The notes under the pieces: model-generated | What the model was told of the DNA's origin: nothing | The model's input: the letters and a program-made list of their open reading frames with translations, nothing else | Databases searched by the model: none | Assembly (NCBI GenBank): GCA_017504625.1 | Contig: JAFVQU010000011.1 | Span: forward strand, 10,035 to 74,034 | Length of the DNA stretch: 64,000 nucleotides | Reading direction: 5' to 3' | DNA from: Clostridia bacterium | Lineage (GTDB): Bacteria; Bacillota; Clostridia; Oscillospirales; CAG-272 | Part shown: piece by piece, positions 10,618 through 38,365 of the stretch | Position numbering within the stretch: the first letter of the stretch is position 1 | Layout: every line of letters starts with the position of its first letter | Program-made: the position numbers and the translations under genes

Positions 10618-10646
10618 TTGACATTGCCTTGGAATTGTGATATAAT
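10618..10646 (+). promoter_or_regulatory. SigA-type promoter for tRNA-Lys
   Basis: TTGACA (10618-10623), 17-nt spacer, TATAAT (10641-10646). Confidence 0.75.
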
Positions 10647-10670: not shown

Positions 10671-10746
10671 GCACCTTTAGCTCAGTTGGTAGAGCAACTG
10701 ACTCTTAATCAGTGGGTCCCGGGTTCGAGTCCCTGAAGGTGCACCA
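10671..10746 (+). tRNA. tRNA-Lys (anticodon CUU), CCA encoded
   Basis: 76 nt. Acceptor gcacctt/aaggtgc, D arm gctc/gagc, anticodon stem actga/tcagt with loop cTCTTAa (anticodon CTT). T arm ccggg-ttcgagt-ccctg has one C50:U64 mismatch. Confidence 0.9.
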
Positions 10747-10750
10747 AAAA

Positions 10751-10789
10751 TAAATAAAGGGTAGCATAGGCTACCCTTTATTTATTTTT
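10751..10789 (+). terminator. intrinsic terminator after tRNA-Lys
   Basis: Long stem taaataaagggtagc / gctaccctttattta with loop atag, then ttttt. Confidence 0.85.
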
Positions 10790-10799
10790 AGTCCATGTT

Positions 10800-11220
10800 T
10801 TATGACCGAACCCGCGCCAATCGCTTGCGATTGGTTTCCACGTGCGCTAAATGTTTTTCGATTTTAATTTGATGTTGGCGCACGTGAGGGTTCTGAGTCC
10901 CCGAAGTCCCACTGAATTATGCCTAGACCGCTAGGCAAGGCAACGCCTTGCCTATTCGATGCGCGCATAAAACCCTGTGCTTCACATATACTTCAGCGCG
11001 CATAAGGGTTCAGAGCTCCCTGAAGAACCTATTTAATGCTCCAAACCCGCCACCCTGCGAAGCAGCGGTGTCCGACGTGCGCTAAATGTTTTTCGATTTT
11101 AATTTGATGTTGGCGCACGTGAGGGTTCTGAGTCCCTGAAGCTACCACTAATTATTTCTAACCCGAGCCAACCGCAAGGGATTAACTTCGACGTGCGTTA
11201 AAAACAACTTGCTTTTTTGA
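10800..11220. repeat. tandem array of ~117-bp structured units (3 full + 1 truncated), each ending in a tRNA T-arm-like module
   Basis: 10839-10906 and 11075-11141 are near-identical (period 235). The intervening unit 10958-11025 keeps the same architecture with a different 8-9 bp stem (atgcgcgc/gcgcgcat versus cacgtgcgc/gcgcacgtg). All full units end with AGGGTTC(T/A)GAG(T/CT)CCC(C/T)GAAG. Confidence 0.8.
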
Positions 11221-11242: not shown

Positions 11243-11271
11243 TTGACACCAAAAAAATCCTATGCTATAAT
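11243..11271 (+). promoter_or_regulatory. SigA-type promoter
   Basis: TTGACA, 17-nt spacer, TATAAT; 30 nt upstream of the glycoside hydrolase start. Confidence 0.7.
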
Positions 11272-38162: not shown

Positions 38163-38232
38163 GACGAGAGAGGGATTCTGAACCTTTACCTGACCTATGG
38201 TCAGGCGTGAGCTTTCTCTTTACCGTCACTTT
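38163..38232 (-). repeat. tRNA-Ser 3'-end-like fragment plus hairpin, downstream of tRNA-Ser
   Basis: In the minus sense, ggttcAgaatccctctctc matches the tRNA T-loop/acceptor (ggttcgaatccctctctc) with a 1-nt insertion. It is preceded by the hairpin cctgacc-atag-ggtcagg. Confidence 0.7.
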
Positions 38233-38238
38233 TCGAGA

Positions 38239-38276: not shown

Positions 38277-38365
38277 TGGCGGAGAGAGAGGGATTCGAAC
38301 CCTCGTGTGCTTGCGCACAAACTGATTTCGAGTCAGCCCCGTTATGACCACTTCGATATCTCTCC
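38277..38365 (-). tRNA. tRNA-Ser (anticodon CGA), class II with long variable arm, CCA encoded
   Basis: Reverse complement: GGAGAGA acceptor, anticodon stem GCTGA/TCAGT with loop CTCGAAA, variable arm TGTGC-GCAA-GCACA, T arm GAGGG-TTCGAAT-CCCTC, then TCTCTCC-G-CCA. Confidence 0.9.

Follow-up and report, generated by a model that had tools for sequence, protein, structure and literature searches.

How does a tRNA gene come to be trailed by a series of folded units, each ending in a copy of that gene's own 3′ part with one base too many? The question is raised by the region behind tRNA-Lys(CTT) in the window, the 64,000-nucleotide stretch of DNA analyzed here, which belongs to genome G000. The host genus is an uncultured Clostridia lineage of the gut or rumen. 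Three full units and one truncated unit lie behind the tRNA, as a first-pass annotation of the letters had described, and each full unit ends in the T-loop-to-acceptor sequence with one additional base. The features of this locus, together with a second instance elsewhere in the window, are as follows.

10671 to 10746, plus strand: intact tRNA-Lys(CTT) (ARAGORN; 68 bits with the Rfam tRNA model), whose T-loop-to-3′ sequence is the one copied in the units
10747 to 10795, plus strand: intrinsic terminator of bidirectional appearance between the tRNA and unit 1, with 26-nt inverted arms at 10740–10765 and 10770–10795
10804 to 10906, plus strand: unit 1 (covariance-model match at 10798–10903, 96.7 bits)
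10926 to 11025, plus strand: unit 2 (covariance-model match at 10912–11021, 66.9 bits)
11043 to 11141, plus strand: unit 3 (covariance-model match at 11031–11138, 94.4 bits)
11160 to 11198, plus strand: truncated terminal unit, which stops exactly after the 5′ arm of hairpin 2 (GACGTGCGT)
38166 to 38236, minus strand: second instance, a short one-hairpin unit behind tRNA-Ser(CGA), ending in TAAAGGTTC-A-GAATCCCTCTCTC

The tRNA-Lys(CTT) gene has a consensus promoter at 10618–10646, and the terminator palindrome behind it spans 10740–10795. No promoter was found within the array, and the following gene, which encodes an MGH1-like glycoside hydrolase, has its own consensus promoter at 11243–11271, after the truncated unit. 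A full unit consists, in order, of a short 5′ arm, a variable hairpin 1, a linker (TTCG or similar), hairpin 2 (an 8–9 bp stem with a loop of ~30 nt), and a 3′ module, AGGGTTC-W-GAG(T/CT)CCC(C/T)GAAG. This module occurs three times, versus 0.25 expected by chance, at spacings of 118 and 117 nt, and reads as GGGTTC-GAGTCCCTGAAG of the tRNA, or its own GGGTTCGAGTCCCTGAAG, with a single T or A inserted. Unit 1 comprises a decayed 5′ arm (10804–10813), hairpin 1 (10817–10834), hairpin 2 (10839–10886, loop of 30 nt), and a 3′ arm with tRNA tail (10887–10906, extra T at 10894), and its minimum-energy fold is a three-way junction. In unit 2, the 5′ arm has shrunk to GACCGC, hairpin 1 occupies 10932–10954, the arms of hairpin 2 lie at 10959–10966 and 10996–11003, and the 3′ arm and tail (11005–11025) contain an extra A at 11012 plus one more inserted C. 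Unit 3 has a third sequence type of hairpin 1, with a bulged C, and a 3′ arm and tail at 11122–11141 with an extra T at 11129; the near-identity to unit 1 noted earlier is complete identity over hairpin 2 and the 3′ arm. In all window units, the 5′ arm GA(CTCW)GAACCC has decayed and the closing helix has been lost. At the second instance, tRNA-Ser(CGA) lies at 38277–38365 on the minus strand, and the end of the short unit is that gene's own tail with one extra base. Tandem Repeats Finder did not call the array, whose units are too divergent, and a search of the whole window array against Rfam, even at E ≤ 10, returned only the real tRNAs and nothing for the units.

What the units fold into became clear from better-preserved copies. 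A second array in G000, on contig C8 behind the other copy of tRNA-Lys(CTT), has a unit whose 5′ end reads GACTCTGAACCC, a perfect reverse complement of the 3′ GGGTTCAGAGTC. The minimum-energy structure of well-preserved copies, obtained with both RNA and DNA parameters, was a three-way junction consisting of a 12-bp closing helix, hairpin 1, and hairpin 2. A covariance model trained on 16 units served to align 59 distinct copies. In this alignment, which was fitted to the model and whose pairing figures therefore lean towards structure, 92% of cells were paired, versus 75.5% in shuffles and 20–45% when partners were slid by 1–3 columns; both-sided pair changes numbered 211 cells versus 77 in shuffles, and 16 of the 24 pairs had changes on both sides. 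RNAalifold, run on an independent MAFFT alignment, also found both hairpins to covary. Selection on structure had been proposed from the long stem of unit 2, which is indeed kept with a changed sequence (ATGCGCGC/GCGCGCAT versus CACGTGCGC/GCGCACGTG), and the covariation of the helices in alignments of copies bears this proposal out. The T-arm segment and the complementary 5′ arm close a three-way junction with the two hairpins, and covariation supports this pairing: at pair 9/184, the 5′ arm changes with the tail, being GACTC in Lys, GAATC in Glu, and GATTC in Gln units. The local AGGG/CCCT T-arm hairpin is less well supported as the functional fold than this pairing with the 5′ arm; the hairpin looked natural in the window because the 5′ arms of the window units are eroded.

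In the same alignment, the two arms carry A or T as the extra base without regard to one another (pair 12/180). The helices are nearly purely Watson-Crick and show no overall strand bias (28 G-T versus 34 A-C pairs); hairpin 2 is 97% Watson-Crick, and hairpin 1 has 12 G-T versus 1 A-C pairs on the plus strand. Helices of this kind, and an array without a promoter, are more readily expected of a DNA element than of an RNA gene. We rejected a CRISPR-like interpretation of the constant 30-nt loops, since related units have homologous loops that differ by point changes, and an inverted-triplication (ODIRA-type) origin was rejected because the center between the arms is not symmetric.

How widely do such units occur? 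By BLAST, 8 of 24 congeners contain Lys-type units, and 16 genomes from the order's other families contain none. Of 39 congeneric genomes, 26 have copies recognized by the covariance model, ~200 in all and up to 20 per genome, often in tandem; copy number varied from 0 to 20 among species of the genus, and sister genera had no units. The shorter one-hairpin relative, of which TAAAGGTTCWGA is a typical 12-mer, also occurs: the 12-mer is found 11 times in G000 (0 times for the reversed control) and shows enrichment in many congeners. Among 200 genomes representing the order's other genera, each has 0–5 copies. No viral contig matched in an exact-pattern scan, a search of ten other G000 loci against Rfam at permissive thresholds gave nothing except tRNAs, and a metagenome scan with the locus-specific promoter recovered one contig, which ended 20 nt past the terminator.

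Wherever the units occur, their ends are matched to the neighboring tRNA. At least 14 loci in G000 repeat their own T-loop-to-3′ sequence downstream, one base longer; these include two tRNA-Lys(CTT) genes, Trp, Glu(TTC), Glu(CTC), Ser(CGA), Ser(GGA), a Ser-like fragment, Leu(CAA), Leu(TAG), Arg(ACG), Thr(CGT), a Pro-like fragment, and tmRNA. Similarity to the T-arm recurs at homologous and non-homologous tRNA loci alike. Among distinct model matches in the fetched loci, 39 of 51 have an annotated same-strand tRNA upstream, in line with the tRNA linkage suggested initially, and the arms follow the upstream tRNA, which argues against a generic dispersed element without such a link. Units with an annotated tRNA lie on the tRNA strand at a fixed distance, with the first unit beginning 46–55 nt past the tRNA end, just beyond the terminator, and the sequence after GGTTC and the extra base is the upstream tRNA's own 3′ part in Lys, Glu, Gln, Leu, Pro, and Thr cases. 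Most model matches lacking an annotated tRNA follow a tRNA fragment or a recombinase gene or stand at the start of a contig; the genomes are fragmented assemblies, whose contigs frequently break off in the flanks of tRNA genes. A core of ~108 nt with conserved sequence blocks is found at more than 12 tRNA species, and at tRNA-Lys(TTT), tRNA-Ser(GCT), and tRNA-His there is only an inverted copy of the 3′ end behind the terminator, without a unit. In most copies examined, GA follows the extra base. The T-loops of tRNA-Thr and tRNA-Leu(CAG) have no GA, yet copies with the extra base are present there, and the crossover point is therefore not fixed.

These results also bear on where the 3′ module came from. 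The C50:U64 mismatch reported for the tRNA is real, as judged by alignment to the Rfam tRNA model, and another Lys isoacceptor had been offered as the source of the perfectly paired copies. Neither half of the module supports that source: the left part, RAGGGTTC, is the unit's own and recurs in Glu-linked units, and the right part always copies the adjacent tRNA. Nor is there support for tRNA-like RNAs, another of the initial suggestions. The T-loop of the units is 8 nt long, they have no acceptor stem (Lys-type units lack its 5′ strand), and the Rfam tRNA model and all other families miss the units at E ≤ 10.

Better-preserved arrays in relatives show what a complete repeat contains. In genomes G012, G023, G228, G009, and G017, the tail extends through CCA, after which come a terminator, a spacer, and then a further unit; at loci L016 (G012), L014 (G023), L050 (G228), and L055 (G009), units precede a complete tRNA-Lys 3′ end that includes CCA, a terminator, and one more unit, and in G017 each of three units has its own terminator. 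Single arrays may hold terminators of different types and therefore did not arise by simple tandem duplication. Cargo can lie between modules, as with a small ORF that has its own promoter in G019:C1 and an AraC regulator with a kinase/aldolase fusion in G004:C41. Truncation exactly after the 5′ arm of hairpin 2 ends three arrays (the window, G000:C8, and G012), and a search of G000 for the right halves of its truncated terminal units gave only chance matches in coding DNA, for example in rpmE. G000 also provides a control, on contig C16, in a classical island at tRNA-Pro(GGG) with an adjacent tyrosine integrase. There, an exact 50-nt repeat begins in the anticodon loop, and both the extra base and the unit are missing.

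The genes directly upstream of several tRNA-less model matches encode large serine recombinases, as judged by translation and Pfam, with a Resolvase, Recombinase, and Zn-ribbon architecture. We searched one of these proteins across the genus and read the DNA downstream of each stop codon. In G015:C45, an intact gene for a 494-residue recombinase is followed by a terminator and then by units; copies 93–94% identical to this recombinase occur in G016, G019, and G237, with a fragment in G004, and in G016 and G237 units again lie behind the end of the gene. In G006:C69, the recombinase stop codon is followed by a two-hairpin unit (model E=0.002) and then by GGTTC-A-GAATCCCCTATGCTCCACCA; in G229:C38, the junction GGTTC-A-GAATCCTGTCACTCCGACCA lies 22 nt past the stop codon; and in G227:C24, the recombinase match covers 7–810 and units lie at 923 and 1063, the first ~110 nt beyond. 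The clearest example is G228:C7, where an intact tRNA-Leu(TAG) is followed by 11 kb encoding TnpV, a McrBC restriction system, an S24 repressor, and, last, the recombinase, past which come a terminator, a hairpin-rich core, and a Leu-like tail whose extra base closes the element. This core shares GCGAGTGTAAGGGTTC with the gene-less Leu unit of G000. In G236:C96, a right end (recombinase plus ~150 nt of hairpins) is joined through a Leu-like 3′ end with the extra base to a left end corresponding to the terminator and TnpV of the G228 island, in what looks like an attP-type joint or a tandem copy. Between them, G228:C7 and G236:C96 show a tRNA on one side, a displaced 3′ copy on the other, and a joined form. 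In total, a recombinase adjoins the junction in G015, G016, G237, G004, G006, G227, G228, and G229. Within G000, no recombinase of the searched family adjoins the window array or any other unit, and at E<1e-30 this one family is missing from the unit-rich G233, G022, and G020, which are incomplete metagenome-assembled genomes.

Our preferred reading, a tentative one with a probability of roughly 0.45, interprets the units as attachment-site arms or as miniature relics of elements that integrate into T-loops by means of large serine recombinases and that have been stacked serially. Among the three origins first put forward, serial site-specific integration at the tRNA 3′ end fits best, with amendments: the junction lies in the T-loop, one base is added, and the enzymes associated in relatives are large serine recombinases. 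The parent elements would be mobile and would enter the T-loop of tRNA genes through recombinases of the TnpX/TndX kind. A complete module would comprise a tRNA 3′ part with CCA, a terminator, a short spacer, the 5′ arm, hairpins 1 and 2, and the 3′ arm, with the 5′ arm being the reverse complement of the T-arm and the 3′ arm ending in GGTTC plus one extra base. At integration, strand exchange would take place just 3′ of the extra base, the chromosomal tRNA would keep a normal T-loop and gain the module's spare 3′ end and terminator, and the displaced old 3′ end would stay behind the module as its tail. Arrays could then grow by repeated integration at one tRNA and by unequal crossing-over between repeated tails, and unused spare ends and terminators would decay afterwards. 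The window array would be an old, gene-less, and now immobile stack in which the 5′ arms and the terminators between units have eroded.

We infer that a recombinase acts at the unit junction, along with the position of its crossover, and that gene-less units were derived from, or moved in trans by, recombinase elements. TnpX and TndX exchange strands at a GA dinucleotide, the same two bases that come after the extra base in most copies examined. The hairpins may present the attachment-site arm or may terminate and insulate transcription. Integration of this kind accounts for the tRNA-specific tail, the intact upstream tRNA, and the presence of the extra base on the element side only, as well as for why arrays contain terminators, why cargo lies between modules, and why the units are restricted to one genus and vary in copy number. 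Known large serine recombinases, to our knowledge, need no hairpins in their sites, and so this reading gives no reason for hairpins 1 and 2 and the closing helix to covary. Several other points stand against it. Adjacency could be coincidence, with elements and units homing separately to tRNA 3′ ends; units of 105–200 bp are too small for excision as double-stranded circles; terminal units are cleanly cut, and matching right halves were not found in G000; and no recombinase of the searched family lies beside G000 units or in some unit-rich genomes. A further conjecture, rather doubtful in our estimation, would give the hairpins a purpose. Here, one lineage of large-serine-recombinase elements, rich in gene-less satellites, would have evolved an attachment arm whose fold imitates the target T-arm and which is re-templated at every tRNA colonized, producing cassette arrays at tRNA and tmRNA genes that resemble an integron in operation but use another chemistry, and in which the hairpin junction is needed for site choice or for mobilization in trans.

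What else could produce such loci? The covariation, the truncations, the loci with only an inverted copy, the independent extra bases, and the absence of the searched recombinase family beside G000 units and from several unit-rich genomes, all left over by the recombinase explanation, keep alive a replication-based alternative that we regard as somewhat improbable, in which the units are an autonomous REP- or MITE-like structured DNA repeat, hairpin-driven template switching or unequal exchange during replication copies the local T-arm in both orientations, the extra base is a junction artefact, and recombinase elements are merely neighbors. The zig-zag order of the parts (direct tail, palindromic center formed by the terminator, inverted copy, hairpins, direct copy) suits this mechanism, as do the inverted copies that stand alone at tRNA-Lys(TTT), tRNA-Ser(GCT), and tRNA-His, the choice of A or T separately in each arm, the duplications that take in the local terminator and spacer (Leu-TAG, Trp, G009), and a copy number tracked by no recombinase or reverse transcriptase. 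Local copying does not reach far enough, however, to place a ~108-nt core at more than 12 tRNA species, which needs transfer between loci, and it fits poorly with modules of one array that carry different terminators and with the identical extra-base junction at the right end of recombinase-bearing islands. Established repeat families were rejected individually. The inverted arms recall a MITE, but there is no short duplication at the ends, where flanking bases are equal or unequal at random (pair 12/180), and copies are confined to tRNA 3′ flanks. REP/RAYT or IS200/IS605-derived palindromes were set aside because G000, at 97% completeness, has no PF01797 or PF04986 match, although the PF04986 search was also empty in 14 of 14 control genomes and is uninformative alone. 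A reverse transcriptase was discarded as a partner because it occurs in 9 of 39 genomes and is missing from unit-rich ones, and GIY-YIG nucleases found no support in the genus, where the matches were of UvrC size apart from a few small ORFs. It is unlikely, we believe, that the units act as RNA, with read-through from the strong tRNA promoter yielding a three-way-junction RNA that shields the tRNA 3′ half from the complementary 5′ arm or is processed to a small regulatory RNA. The constant strand and distance relative to the tRNA, the strong covariation in all three helices, the plus-strand excess of G-T pairs in hairpin 1, the terminators that close many modules, and the precedent of rtT RNA, whose repeats carry the tRNA-Tyr 3′ end, would all agree with an RNA role. 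Yet a terminator precedes every first unit and the array has no promoter, the helices as a whole lack strand asymmetry and hairpin 2 is almost entirely Watson-Crick, copies number from 0 to 20 among species of one genus and are absent from sister genera, the window's units have lost the closing helix, and no Rfam family matches. RtT RNA and the tyrT repeats were rejected specifically on the missing Rfam RtT match, the extra base in the copy, and the intervening terminator at 10747–10795.

Folded single-strand recombination sites, resembling integron attC or the forked attP of CTX phage, seem decidedly improbable; arms paired within single-stranded DNA would imitate the double-stranded T-arm, and some recombinase would insert cassettes at the T-loop. 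The topology is that of an integron array, with a target-like tRNA site followed by inverted and direct sites around a variable structured tip, and there are cargo genes between units and conservation of structure with variable sequence. The enzymes and sites do not match this picture: the four tyrosine recombinases of G000 score 30–78 bits, far below IntI cut-offs of 265–435, no Y1 or Y2 HUH transposases were found in this genome, and neither strand bias nor conserved extrahelical bases were seen. An integron cassette array proper was rejected because IntI is missing and because the arms read TCWGAACC/GGTTCWGA and do not fit RYYYAAC/GTTRRRY boxes. Ordinary attL/attR scars of tyrosine-integrase islands, or a chance local tandem duplication, have very little to recommend them beyond the fact that tRNA 3′ ends are classical integration sites, one of which is used by the tRNA-Pro(GGG) island of G000. 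That island differs in having an exact 50-nt repeat, no extra base, no unit, and an integrase alongside; a classical scar was rejected for the units because they have the extra base and an inverted arm and lack an integrase, and a conserved, covarying family at many tRNAs in many genomes contradicts this reading.

If the link to serine recombinases holds, the units represent an undescribed use of tRNA genes as landing pads, characterized by entry at the T-loop, replacement of the gene's 3′ end, an extra base that marks the element side, and a folded arm matched to the tRNA. It would then help to annotate many "pseudo-tRNA" fragments in metagenome-assembled genomes, to find small islands and their cargo, which here includes defence and sugar-use genes, and possibly to assemble an orthogonal set of serine integrases with predictable tRNA targets. 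The modules may also illuminate the long-standing puzzle posed by tRNA-linked repeats. Should the units be no more than decaying scars, their value lies mainly in annotation. We found no published description of these tRNA-trailing folded modules in the full-text literature.

Several known systems share some of these features. E. coli tyrT repeats and rtT RNA likewise consist of tandem units behind a tRNA gene, each ending in the tRNA 3′ terminal sequence. The tyrT repeats, however, are 178 bp long and co-transcribed, with no terminator between, and copy an exact 19-nt 3′ end, whereas the units described here are genus-wide, occur at many tRNAs, and have the extra base and the inverted arm. 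The likeness to attC and to the forked-hairpin attP of CTX phage, in which inverted arms fold into a target-like duplex with a variable structured tip, structure is conserved over sequence, and organization is array-like, is one of analogy only, as the present units have no IntI, no evidence of Xer, different boxes, and no strand bias. Integrative elements accreted in tandem at tRNA or other att sites, their gene-less derivatives (CIMEs), and tycheposon-type tRNA islands resemble them in having stacked modules with partial tRNA 3′-end copies between, some without a recombination gene; classical scars, such as that of the control island, have exact direct repeats with no inverted partner or fold, in contrast to the T-loop start, extra base, and covarying half-helix seen here. 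A further comparison is with the Tn4451/Tn4453 and Tn5397-type elements, mobilizable or conjugative transposons of Clostridia moved by the large serine recombinases TnpX and TndX. Shared with Tn4451 and Tn5397 are the Resolvase, Recombinase, and Zn-ribbon architecture of the relatives' recombinases, the position of the recombinase gene at the element end beside the junction, and the GA after the junction base; the TnpV encoded in the G228 island belongs to a Tn4451 protein family. Unlike those transposons, the elements in this genus target the T-loop of tRNA and tmRNA genes and bring a spare tRNA 3′ end, have an element-side extra base and an end formed by a conserved three-way hairpin junction, and leave gene-less copies of 105–200 bp that pile up in arrays; we know of none of these features in Tn4451 or Tn5397.

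In the folded units, the hairpin 2 loop drifted in its AT-rich sequence but was nearly constant in length, at 29–31 nt in about a dozen measured copies. Homologues behaved like the loops in the window:

10848–10877, hairpin 2 loop
10967–10995, hairpin 2 loop
11083–11112, hairpin 2 loop

The last units of the arrays were cleanly truncated, several exactly past the 5' arm of hairpin 2; in other cases the break fell within hairpin 1. The following gene's consensus promoter lay directly 3' of these truncated units. One stump sits behind a protein-coding gene, 3.8 kb past the second array of the window's genome (contig G000:C8). Truncated terminal units were found at these sites:

11160–11198, window
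G000:C8:84882–84926
G000:C8:81054–81110
L016, L009, L014, L050 and L055, fetched loci

Another two-hairpin module, of ~52 nt (…ACGTAAATCGCAAGCGATTTACT…CGAGTTTTGC-N3-GCAAAACTTCG), occurred at Lys as well as Glu loci, with a fixed insertion point within pseudo T-arms, between GA(G/T)TC and the 3' strand of the T-stem:

L054 (G233:C29), congener
L022 (G004:C41), congener
G000:C14:13770–13830
G000:C23:33275–33340

Outside the window, at G000:C16:~780–960, the 3' end of an apparent tmRNA gene (…GGGGTTCGACTCCCCTCACCTCCACCA) was followed by a terminator and then by a short unit, the end of which reads TAAAGGTTC-T-GACTCCCC…, and thus the modules trail tmRNA too. Perfect inverted copies (12–18 nt) of the tRNA's own 3' end stood directly past the terminators of three tRNA genes, where they lengthened the terminator palindrome; at tRNA-Ser(GCT) and tRNA-Lys(TTT) the copy occurred without a unit:

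G000:C26:17662–17990, tRNA-His
G000:C28:11330–11424, tRNA-Ser(GCT)
G000:C28:16290–16360, tRNA-Lys(TTT)

At G000:C12:2523–4550, about 6 kb upstream of where the window begins, a gene for a 558-aa large serine recombinase was followed by a partial tRNA-Asn spanning the anticodon loop to CCA. Together they have the look of an element's end at tRNA-Asn, one of a different sublocation type. The same partial tRNA-Asn stands ahead of tRNA-Lys in the congener G015. At L050 (G228:C3), a match to the tRNA-Asn 3' end (…GGGGAGCCA) and a terminator lay downstream of the truncated unit, after the tRNA-Asn/tRNA-Lys/unit block, suggesting that the whole block once inserted into a tRNA-Asn gene.

Recombinases ~50% identical to the G015 enzyme were encoded on unannotated 4–13-kb contigs from human faeces labelled 'Bacteriophage sp.' (L129/L130; MT839758.1, MT838962.1). 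Their reading frames, like those of the genus, terminate in …GTTCGGA-N17-(A/G)CCA, a conserved C-terminal coding motif similar to a tRNA end, with a terminator directly 3' in most cases.

As a control for the units, we used a classical island that carries a tyrosine integrase and has an exact direct repeat of 50 nt beginning in the anticodon loop:

G000:C16:36906–41560, outside the window, 4.5-kb island at tRNA-Pro(GGG)
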